This document shows, in pieces, positions 2,573 through 20,494 of a DNA stretch of 50,336 nucleotides. Each line of letters starts with the position of its first letter. The first letter of the stretch is position 1. Under the pieces are notes generated by a model that was not told the origin of the DNA, did no database searches, and worked only from the letters and a program-made list of their open reading frames with translations. The position numbers were made by a program, and so were the translations under genes. The DNA is taken from IMG/VR virus record IMGVR_UViG_2974574029_000001, positions 95,424 to 145,759 of that record; one strand, written 5' to 3'. This DNA is from a virus. Its lineage: Duplodnaviria; Heunggongvirae; Uroviricota; Caudoviricetes.

Positions 2573-3006
2573 CACCAGGCTATAGATTAATAGGCAGGAA
2601 TAAGCTGATTCCGAGAAAGACCTTCATCGGAAGACATCGTACTTTTTCTCAGCCAGACCCTGATAATCCATTCGAAAACCAAGAGATTGCTATTCAGTAT
2701 GAAGAGTTTGATGTCTTAGAATGCGTTGTCCAGCCTCTGACTGGCAAGGCAGCAAGAGATTACACCTCCCAGCTGACCGAAGCTGGCGGTAGACAGTATG
2801 ATTCCTTTACTGTATATTCGTCAACCCTCCTTAAAGGTCCTGTCGAAGGCTCTTTCCTGCTCGCAGACCAAATCCAGCTCATGAATTCTCGTGGGGAAAT
2901 GGAATGGTTCACCGTTATTAAGTCTGACCCGTATCAGACGACAGGCGTGAGCCGTTACAGAGCGTATGTGATCTCTACGCCTGCTGGTACAGAAGGAGGC
3001 CTATGA
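2569..3006 (+). CDS. Head closure/neck protein
   Basis: ATGA overlap; VVQPL..., YDSFTVY and D-W-F-V-Y pattern; position. Confidence 0.6.
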   Translation: MTPGYRLIGRNKLIPRKTFIGRHRTFSQPDPDNPFENQEIAIQYEEFDVLECVVQPLTGKAARDYTSQLTEAGGRQYDSFTVYSSTLLKGPVEGSFLLADQIQLMNSRGEMEWFTVIKSDPYQTTGVSRYRAYVISTPAGTEGGL

Positions 3007-5080: not shown

Positions 5081-5553
5081 ATGGATACTAGAATTTTAAC
5101 CCCGTATGCTTACGACCCACAGAAAGCGCGTCTCTATATGATGACTCAGCGAGTAACCGGGTTCGCAGCGGATACCAAGATCGTCGTTGCTCGCAACGAA
5201 GATAATATCATCCCCCACATGGGGTTGATGGTGAACTGTCAGCAGCGCTGTCTCGTAACCAATCTGGTGTCCTGACGGTCTCTCTACAGAACACTTCGGT
5301 ATGGAACGGATACTTGGCTAACTGGCAGAAACAAGCTTCCATCACTGGCCTGATTTTCTTCCCCGTCCTTCTTGAAGGCTCCCAAGGTATGGGTCTGAGC
5401 ACAGTTGGTTGGATTCAGAAACAACCGGACCTGACCTATGGTACTGAAGTAGGGCAAATGGACTGGGAAATCGGAATCCTAGATGCATGGTTAAGCCCGG
5501 ATACTCTGTACGCTACAGGCTTCGGTCTGGCTGGCCTTGCAGGTATCATCTAA
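5081..5553 (+). CDS. Tail tube protein (157 aa after restoring one G at 5221-5224)
   Basis: YDPQK motif; ORFs 5081-5275 and 5314-5553 join as HMGVDGELSAALSRNQSG... if G4 is G5. Confidence 0.8.
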
Positions 5554-10158: not shown

Positions 10159-11148
10159 ATGCCTGCTTACAGAACAAGAACCTATAAGCTAACGATAGGT
10201 AAACCAGTGTATGTTGGTGAAAAGCCTACCAATATATCGGACTATACCAACCAGAATGCTAAAGATGCGTATTATATCAGTAATGAAACTGGTGCCGCAA
10301 ACATCGAGTTCGAGGTCAAGAAAGACAACTCGAAGGAGCCTAATAAGGGTTATGTTACCATCTACAACCTCTCCGATGAGACGGTGAGCTACCTCGATGC
10401 TAACCAACGTGAGTCCATTGCGATCGTTCTTGAGGCCGGGTTTGATGGCGAGAATCAGACTATCTTTTCTGGGACCGTAGAGTTTGTTCAGGATAAGTGG
10501 GACGGCAATACCCGTCAGACAAAGATGATCCTCGGGGATGCAACAGTAAATATTAAAACGGCAAAGACCTCTCGCTCTTATAAGAAAGGTACGCCAATAG
10601 ACACGGTAGTCAGTGACCTTGCTTCTGATATGAAGCTCCCCATTGGGAAGATCGTCAAGTTTGGCGACCAAACGCTTCAGCACTCTATGTCCTTTACTGG
10701 CCTCGCCGCAAATAACTTGGAGAGATTAGCCAAGAATACAGGATCTACTTTCAGTGTTCAAGATGGGGCTGTATATTGGACCACGCAAGGTAAAAGATTT
10801 CAAAGGGCAGTTTTTGAGATCAGCGCGGAATCTGGTATGCATGATTCTCCAACGCCACAGAACCCCGAGCCTGCAAAGAGGAGACAGGAAAAAAGGGCCA
10901 AGTCTAAGAGAAAATCATCTAAGCCTCACGTACCTACTTCCGCAGAGATAAAAGAAGACGCTGGATTGGTGGTGGTAACAGAAATAAATGGTGCTATCAT
11001 ACCAGAATCAACGGTATTTTTAAAGAGTCAGAAATATACAGGTTTTTACAAGGTTGTATACTTAACTCACAAAGGCCAGCTCGAAGGTGGGGATTGGATC
11101 ACAGAGTTAGGACTTGCAGAAACCCGTGGTGGAATTGTGGAGGCCTAA
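10159..11148 (+). CDS. Baseplate hub protein
   Basis: F.VKK...EPN...TIYNLS and LEAGF..IFSG motifs. Confidence 0.7.
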   Translation: MPAYRTRTYKLTIGKPVYVGEKPTNISDYTNQNAKDAYYISNETGAANIEFEVKKDNSKEPNKGYVTIYNLSDETVSYLDANQRESIAIVLEAGFDGENQTIFSGTVEFVQDKWDGNTRQTKMILGDATVNIKTAKTSRSYKKGTPIDTVVSDLASDMKLPIGKIVKFGDQTLQHSMSFTGLAANNLERLAKNTGSTFSVQDGAVYWTTQGKRFQRAVFEISAESGMHDSPTPQNPEPAKRRQEKRAKSKRKSSKPHVPTSAEIKEDAGLVVVTEINGAIIPESTVFLKSQKYTGFYKVVYLTHKGQLEGGDWITELGLAETRGGIVEA

Positions 11149-11848
11149 TGGCAGCAATAACCCGTATGGATGCAGCCTTAATCAATGGTTTGCAAAACAG
11201 GCCAGAGATATTCACACAGGGCTAAGGGCAACGGTAGTTGATGTAGACTATAGCATCCCGTCTGCAACAGTTCAACCCCTTGCAAGTACAAACTTCCCAG
11301 ATGGCACCGTGGATGCCTATGGTTCTGTTTTTGATGTTCCCCTATCAATGCCTTCAGGTAATGGAGGAAAAGCCCGCCTAACGATTCCTGTGAAACCTGG
11401 TGATATTGTGGGTCTGAGCTTCTCAGAAAGAAATGAGAATGATAATAATGACCAGACAACTCACAATATGTTTCCTGGGTGGGCGATAATTGGTGTTCAC
11501 AGCGATGGGAATGCCATGACGATCGATCCAGACAATGTTGAACTTTGGAACGACAAGGTGCATTTCTCAATGACGCCTGCGGGTGATTTCACGCTGGAGA
11601 CGCCAGTAGGAAAATTAGTGGTTGACCAGTCTGGGAATTTCAAGTTCGATAATGGTGCGGCAAACCTGACAGCAGAATCTGGTGGTACGATTAAGATGAA
11701 TGGTGCTCAAGTTACCCCTGATGGCAATATTATTACTGCGCGGGGTGTAAACATGAATGATTTTTATGATTATTTTATTCGCCATACACATCACTATACT
11801 TGGACAGATGATGGTGGTCAGAACAATACCGATGCTCCAAATGCATGA
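11148..11848 (+). CDS. Baseplate central spike (233 aa after restoring one base at 11176-11179)
   Basis: ATG 11148 (MAAITRMDAA) joins the NQWFAKQ frame; PVKPGD.VGL.FSER; C-terminal HTH iron-binding motif. Confidence 0.8.
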
Positions 11849-11857
11849 GGGGAATAG

Positions 11858-12472
11858 ATGGCAACTCTTTATTCTGACTTCTTGATGGACCCTGTTACTG
11901 GAGATCTTGATGTTTCTACAGGTCTTCAGTTGATAGAATCCAATCAAGTAAGTCTACGACAGCGCTTATGGCTAAGGTTTAATGTGTGGGCAGGGGATTG
12001 GTATTTTGATGAGACCTTTGGATTTCCATACAGAACCTACATAAGTAAAAAAGTTATGAAGACGGTCCTTGATAATAAGATAAAGGAAATAACCCGTCTT
12101 GAACCGGATGTTTTAGAAATTGCAGATTTCCAGTCTGTAATGGACCATACAACAAGAAGCTATTCTGCCTTTTTTGAAGTCTTAACAAAAGAGCAGGAGA
12201 TTGTAAGAATAGCCTTCGTGGGTGCTGATGATTACTACTACCCGACGCCAAACCCTGAAACAACAACACTTTGCGGAGATGAGGGTTGGATACCTTGGGG
12301 GAATAAGTTATACTACCTTATCAATTTTAGATTACCTAAGACTGGTGATGCAACTTGGTGGAATACTTGGGCGGGTGATATGGCAAACCCTGTACCGCCA
12401 GGATCTCTCTTAACCAGAAAAAGTAACCCGGTAGTCACTCCCGCCGATAAGACGATAAACACCATAAAATAA
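11858..12472 (+). CDS. Baseplate wedge (gp25/DUF2634-like) with C-terminal extension
   Basis: QRL.LR...W.GDWYFD..FGFPY motif. Confidence 0.75.
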   Translation: MATLYSDFLMDPVTGDLDVSTGLQLIESNQVSLRQRLWLRFNVWAGDWYFDETFGFPYRTYISKKVMKTVLDNKIKEITRLEPDVLEIADFQSVMDHTTRSYSAFFEVLTKEQEIVRIAFVGADDYYYPTPNPETTTLCGDEGWIPWGNKLYYLINFRLPKTGDATWWNTWAGDMANPVPPGSLLTRKSNPVVTPADKTINTIK

Positions 12473-12550
12473 AAATTATTACAATTCGAGATTTCTTTTA
12501 GATCTGTGCTACCTAGCGGCAGACCTTTGTTCTTTTAAATCTTTGAAGTT

Positions 12551-12561
12551 TGTGGTAAAAT
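12551..12561 (+). promoter_or_regulatory. Extended -10 element tgtggTAAAAT
   Basis: Same motif as at 2070; no clear -35. Confidence 0.4.
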
Positions 12562-12593
12562 GTACTAATGTTAAGAAGAGGGGTAAATATAAG

Positions 12594-14159
12594 ATGCTAC
12601 AGAGTGTTAAAATTTCAGAGTTGCCAAGCGCGGGCACTCTAACAGAAGATGACCTGATCGTAGTTGATCAACCAGATGATACAAAGAAGGCAACTTTATT
12701 TCAAGTTCTAAATCATCTTGAAAATACCGTTGAACAGTCAACGCTGGTGGCCTTGGCACAGTCTGATGGCTATACGAAAATTGGCGGTTTTTTTTCTGCT
12801 GAAGGGGCTGAAAGCATTGGCGACGCTAATCAGTCTTTCTGGGAACGTATATTTAAGCGCGGGGAATTTGAAATTCACCAGATGCCTGGTGACCCAGCAG
12901 GCGTTGCTGGAATAGTATTCGGCGGCCCGAATAATAAAGCAGCACTAGTCGTAGATGAGCGCGGGCGTATTCAGACATACGCAGTTGTTGACGGTAAATT
13001 ATCTGCTGCACAGGTTGGTACTCCAATTGTCCAGGGAACCGGATATTTTAACAACGGATTTGAAGATAAGATCATTAGGTTCCCATCGGCTGGTGGCGAG
13101 TCTGACGACCTAAGCCCCGGGATCCTTATTACCACTAACGCTAATGGTATTATCGATATTTTCGTTGTTAGCCCCAACCAGTTTAACGACCTTGGATACC
13201 CTACTAGCTCATCTATCGATAAGCAGATGTTCAAGCTGGTAAAAAGTTTCGACATCGGCACATCATTGCAACGAACGATTGATCAATGCCCTACAGTTGA
13301 AAACTCATCAACAGCTCTTTACCACTTGTTTGATGTGAGTTACTCAGGGTTTGGGTCAAAAGTGGTCTCAGGTATTCTGTCAGTCGGTAACTATGTTAAC
13401 TACACACCATGTGTTTACATGGTCACGTTTAACCCACAGGCACTTGGTAACGCCCCCTCCATCAACCAGGATAGTGTCTATCAATGGCTAAAGGTAACTG
13501 CTCTACACGGCGGTCAGTCGGGCTGGGGGGATTCAGCATTAACGCCAGCGGTAGGATTGGTTAATGACCCCGATAATAAAATTGCAAAAATATTTCTGCG
13601 ATTACCGGCATACGGGCAAAAAATATCATTCACACCGATTAATGTTGCCAACCCCAATGTAGTGACGTTTTACTACAATGACTTGCGGAATAATGTAACG
13701 GTAGCTACTCCAAACTATCTGGTTTATTCATTTGCAGAGAAAATGGCAACAGATCGTTTTTACGTGAAAATGAATAACGGTGATGTCCGGTACTCCCCAG
13801 GAGTTGTAGTTCGCGTTTCCGGGAATGTGACTGACCGACTATCTGATAAATTATCAGACGGGGTTTTTGCGATAGGGGGTGCATATCATCTGGCGAATAA
13901 AGGGCGCGCCACCAGTATTACAGTCACCAACCCGTCTACAGGTCAGTACGTTATCAGCGGCTGCAATTTACGTGGAGACCACTGGAAAGTTTGCCCTCCG
14001 GTTGGATTTTCAGGCACGTCATTCGGCACGCCACCGTACATAGTAAACATCGTATCTCAGGGCACGAATACATTCACGATTGAGGTGAAAACGGCAGCAG
14101 GTTCGCTGGTGAATATTAATGGTTTTGACTGGCTCGATCTGCACGTTCAGCCGGTTTAA
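12594..14159 (+). CDS. Tail fibre/receptor-binding protein (521 aa)
   Basis: Start MLQSVKISELP (RBS gagggg); adapter-type N-terminus; beta-rich C-terminal fibre domain. Confidence 0.75.
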   Translation: MLQSVKISELPSAGTLTEDDLIVVDQPDDTKKATLFQVLNHLENTVEQSTLVALAQSDGYTKIGGFFSAEGAESIGDANQSFWERIFKRGEFEIHQMPGDPAGVAGIVFGGPNNKAALVVDERGRIQTYAVVDGKLSAAQVGTPIVQGTGYFNNGFEDKIIRFPSAGGESDDLSPGILITTNANGIIDIFVVSPNQFNDLGYPTSSSIDKQMFKLVKSFDIGTSLQRTIDQCPTVENSSTALYHLFDVSYSGFGSKVVSGILSVGNYVNYTPCVYMVTFNPQALGNAPSINQDSVYQWLKVTALHGGQSGWGDSALTPAVGLVNDPDNKIAKIFLRLPAYGQKISFTPINVANPNVVTFYYNDLRNNVTVATPNYLVYSFAEKMATDRFYVKMNNGDVRYSPGVVVRVSGNVTDRLSDKLSDGVFAIGGAYHLANKGRATSITVTNPSTGQYVISGCNLRGDHWKVCPPVGFSGTSFGTPPYIVNIVSQGTNTFTIEVKTAAGSLVNINGFDWLDLHVQPV

Positions 14160-14171
14160 CAGGAGTTACAA

Positions 14172-15797
14172 ATGCAATATTTATACGTAGACCCTTCCGA
14201 TGATGTAAATAAACCAATTCCGTCAGCATTTAAAACTGTTACGGCTGCTATAGCGGCAATCACCAGCTACCCCTTTTCAATACTAATCAGGCGCGGCACA
14301 GTATTGAAGGAGGCGGTTAATGCCCGGTTAGTGAACACGTCGTCTGACATGAGTTTTTTTGACACATACGGAGAAGGACCACCTCCTAAATGGCTGTCCA
14401 CCTCAAACTCAGCGGGGCAACTCGCATCGTGGAACGCCAGACGCATCACGGTACAGAATATTCACTTTATGGATAGGGATGATGGATTCCTGTCGTCAGC
14501 AACCAGCGTTAACCTCCAGTGCAGTGGTGACGCTAGTGGGCTTGCAGACGTTCACGTCAAAAACTGCTACTTCACTGGTAATGCGTATTCTGTCAGTAAT
14601 CCGACGAAAAACACCGTTGGGAGACACGTGCAGCTGTTCGCTGTCGCATATGATAACACTGCTACACCTGCACATAAACTTAGCGTAGAAGACTGCATGT
14701 TTAACATGGTCAACGCTGGGGTTTATATTCGCGGGAATACCTATGCTGCCGACACAACGGATAACCGAGGCGATGGTAGCAGAACATACGGTGCAAAAGT
14801 GCTGCGCTGCTCTTTCACTAACGTCGTGCAAGAAGGCGTGCTAATGCACACCTGTACCAGCAAAAATGACGTATACACTGATGACGAGTGGCAGAGCTGC
14901 GTCCGGGACTGCTATTACAGTTCATACCGCTGGGATAAATTCACCACGGCTGGAGTGTCGACGTATGACGCGCCGTTCTGGATGTGGCACTGTAATCGAG
15001 TCCTGTTTGAAAAACTTGAGGTGCATGGCTCATATCCAATGGCGCCTGACAACATGGCTGTTGACATTGATGGGATGTGCTGGGATAACGTTGTCAGATA
15101 CGTTTACTCCACTGGCTGCGCCCGTACAGTTATGTTTGTCTCTGCTGATAACGCAGGGTTGCAGTCAGCTCCACCTGCCGGGATGAGCAACTTTGAGTTT
15201 TATTACACACGCCGTCAGGGGAGTGGTAATAACGTAGTGGAATACTGTTTCGCGTTCAACGATGGCATACAGCGACTGCAAGGGCAGATTGGCACACCAA
15301 CAAACGACGCCTGTTCCATATCTCACCACCGCAACCAGTTCAATAATACTGTCCGTAATTGCGTGTTTATTGACACGTCCAGCGTCAAGCAGCGCCGTCT
15401 GATATCAACAAACGGGTACGACACTGAGAGTGCGTCTGTTCCGTCGCTGACGGTAGAGAACTGCATTTTCTACTGCAAGTGGATGACGGGGTCAGACATC
15501 ATTGCACAACTGTCGACGGGAACCAGAACGATTGCGCCAGCGTCTCAAATTATCCTCAACAATAACATCATCTGGTCTGATGCGTGGAGCGCGGCACCTG
15601 ACCTGAGCGCCCTCGCTACGCTGAGCGGCAATGTCTGGGCGAAACCGCAGTATGCGCTGTTGCCCCCCAGCCCACCGTCAACCCGTCGTGGGGCAATTAA
15701 CCTGGGTGTCCCGGCGAATGCAAAGGGGGTCGGTAAGTCAAACCTGCTGCTCGATATCAACGGGCGTTCAGGCAATAACATTGGCTGGTTACAGTGA
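14172..15797 (+). CDS. Right-handed beta-helix protein, putative polysaccharide depolymerase
   Basis: YVDPS...FKTV..AI N-terminus; repeated V..C.F/Y beta-helix rungs; RBS aggag; no phage anchor domain. Confidence 0.7.
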   Translation: MQYLYVDPSDDVNKPIPSAFKTVTAAIAAITSYPFSILIRRGTVLKEAVNARLVNTSSDMSFFDTYGEGPPPKWLSTSNSAGQLASWNARRITVQNIHFMDRDDGFLSSATSVNLQCSGDASGLADVHVKNCYFTGNAYSVSNPTKNTVGRHVQLFAVAYDNTATPAHKLSVEDCMFNMVNAGVYIRGNTYAADTTDNRGDGSRTYGAKVLRCSFTNVVQEGVLMHTCTSKNDVYTDDEWQSCVRDCYYSSYRWDKFTTAGVSTYDAPFWMWHCNRVLFEKLEVHGSYPMAPDNMAVDIDGMCWDNVVRYVYSTGCARTVMFVSADNAGLQSAPPAGMSNFEFYYTRRQGSGNNVVEYCFAFNDGIQRLQGQIGTPTNDACSISHHRNQFNNTVRNCVFIDTSSVKQRRLISTNGYDTESASVPSLTVENCIFYCKWMTGSDIIAQLSTGTRTIAPASQIILNNNIIWSDAWSAAPDLSALATLSGNVWAKPQYALLPPSPPSTRRGAINLGVPANAKGVGKSNLLLDINGRSGNNIGWLQ

Positions 15798-15810
15798 GGA
15801 AGTTGTGAAA

Positions 15811-16023
15811 ATGCTAACGTTTCCAAAAACCAATACGAATGATGACACCCCGATAAACTTACAGGATTATTTCGGGCCTGATTTCGAAATGAGGTCTACC
15901 CCTCCCGTTAAAATCGACAACGCCACCCTCGAGCTGGCAAGGGCGATTCTCGAAGGACGTGAATCGCTAATTCAAGAGCGTCCGTGGTGGGAGCTAAACA
16001 CCCCTAAAATGATGGACTTTTAA
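15811..16023 (+). CDS. Hypothetical protein (70 aa)
   Basis: RBS gagga; start MLTFPKT. Confidence 0.6.
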   Translation: MLTFPKTNTNDDTPINLQDYFGPDFEMRSTPPVKIDNATLELARAILEGRESLIQERPWWELNTPKMMDF

Positions 16024-16032
16024 AGGTGGAAC

Positions 16033-16278
16033 ATGAATTACTTCGAAGCAACACAGTCAGCTTACACGCGCACTCCGGTGCGCCTTCCTGAGTGGGTAGA
16101 TGGCAAATACGTATTCTGGGGGACGATCACAGTTACAACCATTAATACTGATGAAAATGGCATAGAATCACATGTCAACGAGGAATATACGGGGCTCTGT
16201 CTGGCAGATGGCGTAAAAATATCACCGTATATACAAACAGAAGGTGAGATTGTTTCAGAGGAGTGGCTGATAGCATAA
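16033..16278 (+). CDS. DUF2829/Tad2-like small protein
   Basis: MNYFEA...VRLPEW.DGKY start and ADG...PYIQTEGEIVSEEW end resemble the DUF2829 pattern. Confidence 0.55.
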   Translation: MNYFEATQSAYTRTPVRLPEWVDGKYVFWGTITVTTINTDENGIESHVNEEYTGLCLADGVKISPYIQTEGEIVSEEWLIA

Positions 16279-16357
16279 TCAGATAATAGTCAGGATTCCG
16301 ACCTGATTCACACATTGCCCTCGCTTCACTACACAGTGAACCCCGCGGGGGTAAGGC

Positions 16358-18788
16358 ATGCGAATGAACAACCTTTCAGACGTAGCGGCGGGAGCCTCCT
16401 ACGTCACTTCTATTGGCAGCGGTGGTTACTGGCTGTTGCAGCTTCTCGATAAAGTCACAGAGATCAAAAACGAGGCAGTTGAGGCAAAAGACCAGTCAGA
16501 GGATGCGAGAGATGAGGCCAGATCTTATGCATTGCAGGCCTCTGAGCTAGGGAACTTATATGCATCTGTTAGTGAAGGTCTTGCTGCAACTACGGATGGA
16601 CAATACTTCCAAGTACCTCAAGGAAGCGGCAGCTATGTAGCATTCAAAGTGTACAAGAATAATGCAGGGGTTGCTCAAGAAGTCGCGGCAGTGCCTGGCA
16701 CCGGGGCTATAATCGGGACAATCCGCGAATTTCCCACCCTGGCGGCAGCACAGACTGATGCTGACGCTGGAAATATCCTGGTTGGGTCAACAGCCTATTA
16801 CCGAAGCCCGGAGGACAACGCGCTTGCTATCGAGGTAATTAACAACGCAGGGACTTTGGTCGAAACCGGGCGAAAAATGCCCAGCTCTAAGCTAGTTGAG
16901 TCTGTGCTCAGTATGATAAGTGCAGATGGGATCACTCGGGATGCCTTCATGCAATGGGCTGATAAAAATGGGCTTATCATTGCTAAATGGCTTCAGTCAG
17001 ATGAAGGCGTTTCATTTTCATCTGCGTTGCTAAATTTTGGTCCTGAAGGGTTTATTGCTAAACTGGCAGGCATTGGCGCTGATAAAATATTCACCAGTTT
17101 TATTGAGATGATCAGCGGTGATGATTTTATAGTAAGTGACAAAAATGGACTGATTATATCTCAGATAATCAACAGCATCGTAAAACTACCTGGTTTTATG
17201 CTTAATATTCCTTTCCTGAATCTATATGCTAAAAAATTAAATCTTCTTCCTGGTATGACGCTAGGGGCTGACGATGCGACAATTACGCTCTCCGGCCCAC
17301 TTCAGACGGTAGACCAGAATGGGCTGATTGCTTTTTCTCAAGATGCCAAAGGGAAGGTTAAATTCTCTGATATGGGTAAGCGTGGCTCAGGAGGTGGAGC
17401 AGCCACGGGGGCCATGAAGGAGAGCCAGGTTATTGACCTGCTGGATGGGGCTGGTGCTGCATATGCATCGAAGCGACATAACCAAGTTAGATTCCCGGTG
17501 CCACGCGCGACGAATCTAAAGAAACTCACATACTGGTTTCTGGTAGGGCAGTCATTTGTTAATGGCGGGGGTAGTAGTTTCGCCATCCCTGACACAACGG
17601 ACATGGGCAACATCATGCTCGGTCAGTCACCTCGCGGCAGTACGTTCGTTAAGGGGCTTCCCTCCTATGATTTTACGCCGGTCGGCGGGAACGTGTTTTA
17701 CCCATTGCAGGAGGTCCGCCAGACCGACGCTGGGGTTATTTCCACGACCAGCGGCAGTCATGGGCAAACTATCGCCAAGGGGTTTGCTGATGAATTGAAG
17801 CGCCGCTATAACGAACGTACCCGGCAGCAAAATAACACCGACCATATCTTCGGCGTGGCCTGCTGCGGCGTGTCTGGTGCATCAATCGCCGATCTGACAA
17901 AAGGTGCTGCGGCGGGTTATTACAACCGGTTCCTGACGGCGCTTTCAGGCGTTGCAGCCGCGGCGGCCGCAGCGGGTTATGATTGGGAGGTTGGCGGGCT
18001 GATTTACATGCAGGGTGAGCAGGACAACGGTACAACCACCGAAATCTATTTGCCTCAGCTACAGACAATGCATGACAACATGATCGCTGATGCTATGGCT
18101 GCATCCGGGCAGAAGGCAACACCCATTTTCCTGATTAACCAGATCGGCAACAGCTTCATCTCGGGTCGCAACTTTGGTGTGGTCGAAGCCCAGCGCCGGT
18201 TCGTTGAAAACAACCCTCTGGCCTTTATGGTTGGCAGCTACACAGGTCTTCCCAATCCTGTCGATCACCTGTTTGCGAATTCATATCGCTGGCTGGGCGC
18301 ACAGTTCGCTAAAGTCGCGGACCGTGTAATGTGGGGCAACGATGAAGCTAACTTCCAGATGGTAGGTGCCTACTGGTCTGGTAATACTGCGTACATCGGT
18401 TTCTCAACCCGAGTCCCGCCGCTGACATTTAAGTCTGCTTATGTCACATACACTGAAACGATGTATGACGATAAAGGATTTACCGTGTCTGACGGCTCCG
18501 GGGTGCTTACAGGTTCAAATCTTACAGTTTCAATCGTCAGTGATAACGTTGTGAAGATTGTTGCGGCTCGCGAGCTAACCGGGACGGTGACTATCATGCT
18601 CGGTGACGGAACGGCGCACGCGGGGGGTACACAACATCGCTGACAGTGATACCGAGATCTCTGACTTCACCTGGGAAGCAGGCCTCCCCAACCAGCCTGC
18701 TACTGAAAATATCGCAGCCCTGAATAACAAAAACTATCCACTGGCAAATCGTGCATTAATTCAAAAAATCACCGCAGAGGAATTTTAA
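16358..18788 (+). CDS. Tail spike with SGNH/SASA-type O-acetylesterase domain and pinholin-like N-terminus (809 aa if G6 at 18622-18627 is G5)
   Basis: GQS, QGE and DH esterase blocks; REFPTLAAAQ.DADAGNI fibre segment; residues ~1-34 resemble phage 21 S. Confidence 0.75.
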
Positions 18789-18789
18789 T

Positions 18790-19563
18790 ATGTCATTAAA
18801 TATCAAAATGCCAGACAGTAATTTTACCCACGTATGCGGGGTTATCCCCGCAGTAGCCAGTGGGCTTGTTGGCTTTGGCTTGATGGGGAATAATGTTGGT
18901 GTCAATCTTTACGGAAGCACAGATGCATCAGCAGTCGGAACAATCACGCAGACTGGCGAACTTGTTTCAACGCTTGGCACCAATAAATATGTCCAGACCA
19001 ACCTTAAAGCTACCAGTGACCTGACATATCTGGTGGTGGCAAAATGCTATCTCCCTGCTTCAGGTGATAACAACCTCCTCATCGGCGATAACCTGAACGC
19101 GAAAACCGATGGGACTGTTATCAACTCTACAGGCATCCTCCTGACGACGACGCAGGCGATCGGTGTTGTTGGTGTACGCAATAAGTCCACGAATGCCAAT
19201 ACCACCTACAATGCCAATGGGGCTATAGGGTTACCTACCGGGGCAGCTAATGCGGCATGGAAATGTCTTTCCTTGCGTGTTGGTGTGGCCGGAATTTCAG
19301 GCCGGACAGAGTCAGTAAACCTGGATAACCTGACAAATAGTTTGAAAGTTACACGATCAACTTTGGATACTACCACTTTTGACAGACAGACTGATCTGAC
19401 TAAAACTATCAACGTTGGCTCGATGGTTGATAGCACGACGCAGAACAACAATTTTGATATCCTCGGATATGCCATCTACAACCGCGCTTTGTCTGACACG
19501 GAACTATCAGCGGCATATGCTCAGTTGAAGGCGGTGGCTGCATCACAAGGCATTACCATTTAA
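18790..19563 (+). CDS. LamG/concanavalin-like lectin domain tail protein
   Basis: C-terminal AIYNRALSDTEL motif; coupled to the spike gene. Confidence 0.65.
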   Translation: MSLNIKMPDSNFTHVCGVIPAVASGLVGFGLMGNNVGVNLYGSTDASAVGTITQTGELVSTLGTNKYVQTNLKATSDLTYLVVAKCYLPASGDNNLLIGDNLNAKTDGTVINSTGILLTTTQAIGVVGVRNKSTNANTTYNANGAIGLPTGAANAAWKCLSLRVGVAGISGRTESVNLDNLTNSLKVTRSTLDTTTFDRQTDLTKTINVGSMVDSTTQNNNFDILGYAIYNRALSDTELSAAYAQLKAVAASQGITI

Positions 19564-19572
19564 GAGACATCG

Positions 19573-19616
19573 CGATCTCCCCTCTCAATAAAATATGCAG
19601 CAGTTTTCAGAGGGGA
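19573..19616. repeat. Inverted repeat tctcccctct...agaggggaga
   Basis: 10-bp arms, ~23-nt loop, intergenic. Confidence 0.55.
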
Positions 19617-19657
19617 GACTATGCTTCGACAGTCGTATAAGGGGATGAGGGCAAAAT

Positions 19658-20494
19658 ATGGCAACAACTGATCTCTCTGTAATAAAGATAAAAAATCTTT
19701 CTAACAGGGCCTCGGTGTTGGAGACAGATGAATTAATCATCCAGTCCTCCACAGACACTGAAAAAACCACGATAAGTAAATTCATTACGGATATTGATAT
19801 CCTTAGAAAAAGTGAAATGACAGGCTCTTCCGGGGCTTCTGTTGTGGGAACACATTCCGGAGCAACTGTTCAACAAGCACTTGACAGTCTTTCAAATAGC
19901 TTACAAAACATAGCTGGTAATTATTATTTCTCTTCTTCAGGAAATGAGGTAGGTGCTAATGTAGACACGTTATCCTTAAGTCCTTCAGAGAGAACTTATG
20001 GAGTCCAGATATCTGTCCCTTCAGCGGCATTCTCTCCGAAAACAGACAATCGGATATCTAATGGTACTACTAATCTTAGATGGAGCCAAGTTTACGCAGT
20101 AAATAGCGTAATTTCTACCTCTAATAAGAAAAAGAAAACTAATCTCCGCCAGATCTCCATCGCAGAGACTAGAGCTTTTTATGAGATTGGGAAATTAGAT
20201 TCGGTTTGGCAATGGTTGGCTAAATACTCATCTGAGAAAGGCGCAGCAAGACTTCATTCTGGCCCTACCGTTCAAGATGCAATGAGGGTGATGCTAAAGC
20301 ATGGTCTCGATTGGACGAAATATTCAGCATTCTGCTACGACAAGTGGGAAGCAGATGGTGATAGGCCAGCAGGCGAGGAGTACGCCTTTAGAAAAGAGGA
20401 GTTGTTGTTCTGGGTATTGCGGGCAACTATTGCGATGCAGGAGGACTTGGATAAGCGCCTTTCAGTCTTGGAAGAGTCTTTGTCCGGCAACTAA
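19658..20494 (+). CDS. Short tail fibre with C-terminal intramolecular chaperone (peptidase S74-like)
   Basis: LRWSQVYA..SVISTS.K.KKTNL motif, then H.GPTVQ and Y.FR.EEL. Confidence 0.75.
   Translation: MATTDLSVIKIKNLSNRASVLETDELIIQSSTDTEKTTISKFITDIDILRKSEMTGSSGASVVGTHSGATVQQALDSLSNSLQNIAGNYYFSSSGNEVGANVDTLSLSPSERTYGVQISVPSAAFSPKTDNRISNGTTNLRWSQVYAVNSVISTSNKKKKTNLRQISIAETRAFYEIGKLDSVWQWLAKYSSEKGAARLHSGPTVQDAMRVMLKHGLDWTKYSAFCYDKWEADGDRPAGEEYAFRKEELLFWVLRATIAMQEDLDKRLSVLEESLSGN

Follow-up and report, generated by a model that had tools for sequence, protein, structure and literature searches.

How does the gene of a tail-spike esterase come to begin with part of a phage lysis gene, and what would become of its product? 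The question is raised by one ORF in the window, a stretch of 50,336 nucleotides that makes up the rightmost third of a virus record of 145,759 bp. Proteus phage Mydo, Klebsiella phage KpS11, and a 137-kb Logan contig, all of the Vequintavirinae/Mydovirus group, share 90-95% identity with the backbone of this record. The recipient of the foreign DNA described below is a large Klebsiella-type, Vequintavirinae/Mydovirus-like phage (145.8 kb). An earlier note on this DNA had described a spike ORF that starts like a pinholin of the phage 21 type and then switches to a coiled-coil neck. The ORF was found to be as read (16358..18643, + strand, 761 aa, P0001), with a holin-type N-terminus followed by a neck beginning TEIKNEAVEAK. 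The ORF and the leader in front of it are made up as follows.

16288..16357, + strand: holin leader of the donor, with two conserved hairpins, containing the CCCCGCGGGG palindrome
16358..16456, + strand: pinholin-derived codons 1-33 of the ORF, with the Met-Arg-Met dual start, the N-tail, and the SAR-like helix TMD1, but neither TMD2 nor the C-terminal tail
16458..18643, + strand: spike body, made up of a coiled-coil neck, middle domains, and the SASA/SGNH esterase, and matching residues 161-883 of a 936-aa ortholog at 97% identity

The spike ORF begins with a fragment of a pinholin gene

The HMM comparison proposed in the earlier note, using the family of the phage 21 holin S (PF04971, Phage_holin_2_1), placed a match at residues 7-35 (profile positions 1-29 of 64), so that a holin match is present. 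The score was above the cut-off of 26 bits both for the whole protein (26.2 bits, E 8e-6) and for residues 1-45 alone (31.9 bits). Residues 3-33 of the spike agree at all 31 of 31 positions with residues 1-31 of the class II holin of an E. coli prophage (P0004, L004:2577-2801, 74 aa), and this donor-type holin matches PF04971 over profile positions 1-63 with 108 bits. When the N-terminus was aligned with the S21-type antiholin/holin (S71/S68) of phage 434, 19 of 39 residues were identical, in agreement with the estimate of the earlier note that about half of the aligned residues match phage 21 S.

At the nucleotide level, a BLASTN search of E. coli genomes with 16214-16470 revealed 90.5% identity over 16288-16455 to a prophage intergenic region and the 5' end of a class II holin gene. 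About 30 prophage-like viral contigs (25-50 kb) were 78-95% identical over the 70-nt leader and the holin 5' end, and the shared stretch always begins at 16285-16289 and stops at 16455-16457. The homology thus ends just 5' of the codons for SPSQW and TMD2, where the earlier note had placed its end, and the junction mapping that it had called for yields the same position. Identity at the nucleotide level excludes a chance match. No other PF04971 match, and no full pinholin, was found anywhere in the phage genome; the holin piece is therefore of external source, and an intragenomic origin was ruled out.

The protein cannot be a holin, because it covers only positions 1-29 of the 64-position profile and lacks TMD2, which is the pinhole-forming helix of a two-helix pinholin, as well as the charged C-terminal tail. 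The gene also has no adjacent SAR endolysin gene as in a lysis cassette; in the donors, a lysozyme gene comes after the holin. Ten of the 23 residues of TMD1 are Gly, Ala, or Ser, a composition consistent with a helix of the SAR type. The Kyte-Doolittle maximum of TMD1 is 0.93, compared with 1.82 for TMD2, and TMD1 alone falls below the usual transmembrane thresholds.

The translation-initiation region came with the fragment. The leader has a predicted folding energy of -41.3 kcal/mol (z -3.2), and its second hairpin sequesters the Shine-Dalgarno sequence GGGGGTAAGG. The start ATG CGA ATG (Met-Arg-Met) is conserved in the donor prophages. Both the Met-basic-Met dual start and the CCCCGCGGGG element, which had been described as retained, proved to be native to the donor holin leader, and the chimeric ORF carries a dual-start motif of holin/antiholin genes with two putative starts. 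The leader may provide an sdi-like control of this dual start and may also be a conserved right-hand recombination arm for spike exchange. A scan of 12400-19800 for sigma-70 promoters and terminators gave counts not above those in shuffled sequence.

In the prophage-like contigs themselves (about 30, L012-L041, around positions 2930-3000), the 70-nt leader is highly conserved although the spike genes upstream of it differ, and the leader hairpin GGATTCCGACC is invariant.

The esterase body is intact but its virion-attachment region is missing

A Pfam search of P0001 located a SASA esterase domain (PF03629) at residues 490-653 (34.4 bits, cut-off 24.8). The GQS, QGE, and DH blocks are visible and are identical in the ortholog, and the spike body is a predicted SASA/SGNH carbohydrate esterase with intact motifs. 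Residues 36-757 were assigned by PHROGs to tail-fibre families, and the residues following TMD1 form a long acidic coiled coil.

The best protein match, P0006 (936 aa), is identical at 715 of 745 positions from the junction to the point at which the reading frame shifts in the window (~97%). Its gene occupies the corresponding locus of the related 137-kb phage contig, where the gene order is the same. P0006 starts with a conserved fibre N-terminus and carries PF18668 (Tail_spike_N, TSP1/Gp66) at residues 95-152; gp224 of Proteus phage Mydo is laid out in the same way. In TSP1 of phage CBA120, the N-domain of the PF18668 type has been described as the virion-attaching part (PMC3966878).

P0001 gave no PF18668 match even at E<=10, and a search of the whole genome with residues 1-165 of P0006 matched nothing beyond a generic N-terminal motif in two other fibres; the anchor is absent. 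All close homologs inspected have an additional N-terminal region ahead of the neck. In the comparison of orthologous spike N-termini that had been suggested, P0006 keeps a 160-aa attachment region with PF18668 and has no holin N-terminus. Since this region is absent here, the spike has lost 160 residues and gained 33. From the loss of the anchor and the analogy with CBA120 TSP1, the chimeric protein is probably not mounted on the virion.

The esterase body has a dN/dS of 0.14 relative to the ortholog, with no inactivating change and no visible decay; the event may simply be recent. The spike gene is followed by the gene of a 257-aa protein and then by a Peptidase_S74 fibre gene.

18790..19563, + strand: 257-aa gene, beginning 1 nt after the true stop of the spike and travelling with the esterase module (dS 0.05, against 0.5-0.8 for the backbone)

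When window positions 16460-19563 were compared with positions 10484-13583 of the closest relative (L007), the esterase and 257-aa genes showed a dS of 0.05-0.09, as against 0.3-0.8 for flanking backbone genes. Judged by these values, the module of the two genes has recently been shared or exchanged among Mydovirus lineages.

The fragment lies at the right end of an imported cassette

Relative to the intact 137-kb phage, backbone homology is lost at 12761 and returns at 16442. The following features occupy or border this interval.

12594..14159, + strand: chimeric fibre, whose N-terminus is of the Mydovirus gp226 type and whose C-terminal part is that of a LASTA-like fibre
12712..12784, + strand: left crossover zone, 73 nt matching both the Mydovirus backbone (to 12784) and the LASTA-like/prophage cassette (from 12712)
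14172..15797, + strand: 541-aa receptor-binding gene (depolymerase candidate), equal in length to LASTA_00012; nucleotide identity 86% to LASTA and 88% to bacterial contigs
15811..16278, + strand: two small imported ORFs (~15811..16023 and 16033..16278), homologs of LASTA_00011 and LASTA_00010
16445..16457, + strand: right crossover, microhomology CTCGAT(A/G)AAGT(C/T)A, with 11/13 nt common to donor and recipient

Positions 12712-16213, comprising the fibre C-terminal part, the 541-aa protein, and the two small ORFs, are 86% identical to Klebsiella phage LASTA, and the left crossover zone falls in the N-terminal part of the fibre gene, which is conserved. Assembled genomes of bacterial isolates include contigs that span 14100-16457 unbroken and then go on with GCCCTAGCCAGTGGGCGGCG..., which encodes SPSQWAAIGV, the rest of the holin. 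One of these contigs is 23.7 kb long at ~88% identity, and another covers 16014-16457 with 8 differences. As the contigs run from the cassette into the holin, the order in the donor prophage is depolymerase, two small ORFs, leader, and pinholin. A search of genome contigs with the 541-aa cassette protein itself returned no confirmed match.

The right crossover could be placed to the base: donor-specific bases end at 16455 and recipient-specific ones begin at 16458, with the junction at 16456-16457. At the protein level, LLDKV of the holin (codons 29-33) met LLDEV of the spike (codons 156-160). The proposal of the earlier note, recombination within a prophage holin gene that replaced the anchor of the spike, is hence borne out by the intact ortholog, the donor contigs, and the backbone break at 12761/16442.

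Several observations concern the neighbours of the fusion. The 541-aa protein has no Pfam match and no fibre-type N-terminus. Its homolog in LASTA comes after a T7-like fibre, and the chimeric fibre 12594..14159 may accordingly be its docking site. The 81-aa ORF at 16033-16278 (homolog of LASTA_00010) had no Pfam match at E<=0.01 in a quick scan, and a DUF2829/Tad2-like reading of it is therefore unsupported. In the E. coli prophage L004 (311-2500), the gene directly upstream of the holin is annotated as a sialate O-acetylesterase. This adjacency looks coincidental, because the prophage protein is only 29% identical to the spike over 84 aa, and an origin of the spike esterase from the same type of prophage as the holin was ruled out on the same value.

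Sequencing errors and the status of the junction

The 3' end of the spike gene is interrupted by a single-base difference.

18621..18626, + strand: G6 run (G5 in the ortholog), which shifts the frame
18627..18788, + strand: last 53 spike codons in the shifted frame; they match the ortholog C-terminus at 98% identity and show no synonymous change

Compared with the closest relative (L007), unbalanced single-base indels also occur at 5225, 11177, 22777, and 26332 (besides 18627), mostly in short homopolymers, and break conserved genes; that at 5225 (G5 to G4) splits the tail tube gene into 5081..5275 and 5314..5553. Because similar 1-nt indels interrupt the tail tube gene and other conserved genes of the same record, the G6 frameshift is probably a sequencing error, and its interpretation as pseudogene decay was rejected. 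The record probably carries sequencing errors, and its frameshifts are therefore not to be read as biology.

The fusion was seen in this record only. The exact 30-mer across the junction had 0 matches in viral contigs, and of 33 viral loci with relatives of residues 1-110 that were scanned, none had the fusion. None of the sequencing runs searched had the junction, and none contained more than 0.42 of the sampled words; contigs from the runs either stop at 16457 and go on into the holin or begin after 16605. The runs searched thus gave neither independent support for the junction nor contradiction of it.

The single-base errors and the absence of the junction from any independent run would agree with an assembly or library chimera, in which template switching or an in silico join linked the holin piece and the spike, and an assembler could also bridge the 73 nt common to both sides of the left junction. 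However, the 11/13 nt at the right junction are too few for a k-mer or overlap join, the contig is back in register with the same locus after 3.7 kb, as is expected of a double crossover, and the junction is in frame. We took the junction as real on account of the short overlap and the regained collinearity, and we consider an artefact very improbable.

Origin and fate of the fusion

Sequence comparison establishes where each segment came from and where the junction lies, and it shows that the anchor was lost and that the esterase body is intact. In the mechanism that we propose, a Mydovirus-like phage swapped 2.7 kb of its receptor-binding locus for a 3.7-kb cassette of a temperate phage or prophage. 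It thereby lost the larger part of the gp226-type fibre, a small ORF, and esterase-spike codons 1-160, and gained the C-terminal part of a fibre, the 541-aa depolymerase candidate, the two small ORFs, and the holin gene from its leader through codon 31. The left crossover passed through 73 nt of real homology, and the right one was illegitimate, at the 11/13-nt microhomology and in frame by happenstance. The esterase body would now be translated from the pinholin start, with its Shine-Dalgarno sequence within a hairpin and its Met-Arg-Met, and the pinholin N-tail and TMD1 stand in for the virion-attachment region. If made, the product would be an off-virion esterase, either located in the cytoplasm or loosely attached to the membrane by the weakly hydrophobic TMD1, and would be freed at lysis.

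We hold it rather probable that this recombination scar is a tolerated recent by-product that gives an anchorless off-virion esterase. We put this reading first because the fusion occurs as a singleton and needs no cause beyond the cassette swap, of which it is collateral. Counted against it are the frame of the fusion, which chance would preserve in 1 of 3 cases, the retention of a complete translation-initiation region, and the undecayed esterase body. In addition, TMD1 of S21-type pinholins is reportedly a SAR-like helix, which makes a targeted product conceivable. Related statements on S21 68 have been published (PMC9025707).

The same features would gain a function if the product had been exapted, an outcome that we regard as unlikely though conceivable. 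The pinholin TMD1 would then be a SAR-like signal or a membrane tether, and the esterase, placed at the inner membrane or in the periplasm or acting as a free enzyme, would de-acetylate capsule or O-antigen, either on the infected cell itself or on cells nearby, with a receptor-destroying or exclusion role and two forms from the dual start. In favour of this reading are a Gly/Ala/Ser-rich, weakly hydrophobic TMD1 (0.93 vs 1.82 for TMD2) of the SAR type, which in the native pinholin is oriented N-in/C-out, an in-frame fusion that has the leader hairpins and dual start of the donor, and a set of intact esterase motifs with a PF03629 match. However, the fusion is a singleton with no conservation, the long acidic coiled coil and the ~770 residues of a trimeric spike make an unlikely Sec substrate, TMD1 alone lies under the usual transmembrane thresholds, and the cassette swap accounts fully for the event. 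A single-sequence AlphaFold model of residues 1-200 (pLDDT 43.7) was uninformative. That TMD1 acts specifically as a SAR-like export or tether signal, so that a capsule/O-antigen O-acetylesterase reaches the envelope of the infected cell by a route separate from the virion and possibly in two forms, seems to us less likely still. The spike might also still be mounted on the virion through the retained neck (residues ~35-190) or the downstream 257-aa protein, with the holin peptide as a harmless extension. The neck module does recur in many spike families (PHROG matches at residues 36-190), the alignment with phrog_4201 starts at residue 46 and at profile position 5 of 676, and the esterase and 257-aa genes are conserved together. 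But every close homolog inspected has an extra N-terminal region before the neck, and the 160-aa PF18668 region of the direct ortholog is missing from the whole genome, which leaves mounting quite improbable.

The locus is a well-documented recombination scar and probably not a new export device. It offers an unusually clean, base-resolved case of a lytic phage rebuilding its receptor-binding locus from prophage DNA, with one homologous and one microhomology crossover and collateral damage to the resident spike. It is also a warning for annotation, since a 'holin' Pfam match or a 'tail spike' label can be a scar, and it draws attention to conserved holin leaders that flank variable spike genes in a temperate phage family. 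As a natural TMD1::enzyme fusion, the ORF could be used to examine whether pinholin TMD1 alone targets a large cargo. If the export or tether reading were true, a helix of a lysis protein would in nature have become the targeting device of a receptor-modifying enzyme; a product that is no more than a relic would be of modest wider significance.

Comparison with known systems

The earlier note knew of no holin-TMD::depolymerase fusion, and none was found in the open-access literature searched, nor was a description of an in-frame pinholin-TMD1::spike product. The fusion resembles the phage 21 S pinholin and other class II holins in its N-tail and TMD1, its Met-basic-Met start, and its conserved leader hairpins, and differs from phage 21 S in lacking TMD2, the charged C-terminal tail, and an adjacent SAR endolysin. 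With SAR endolysins (R21, P1 Lyz) it shares an N-terminal, weakly hydrophobic, Gly/Ala/Ser-rich helix before an enzyme domain; however, the cargo is a trimeric spike of ~770 residues instead of a small muramidase, and it has no homology to any endolysin. Its neck, middle domains, and SASA esterase are those of a Mydovirus gp224- or CBA120 TSP1-type spike, and its position and downstream genes are the same as those of P0006, but its first 160 residues (PF18668) have been replaced by 33 holin-derived residues.

Module swaps among tail-spike proteins have been described for the Ackermannviridae (PMC8432352). In an evolution experiment, Mydoviruses (H variants) gained a receptor-binding protein together with a partial gene fragment, probably from a prophage (PMC12654880), and the gain of receptor-binding proteins by lytic phages from prophages is therefore in itself a known process. 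The present locus is alike in having a receptor-binding block accompanied by partial gene fragments from a prophage-like source, and differs in that here an in-frame fragment of a lysis gene has been fused to the resident spike and its anchor removed.
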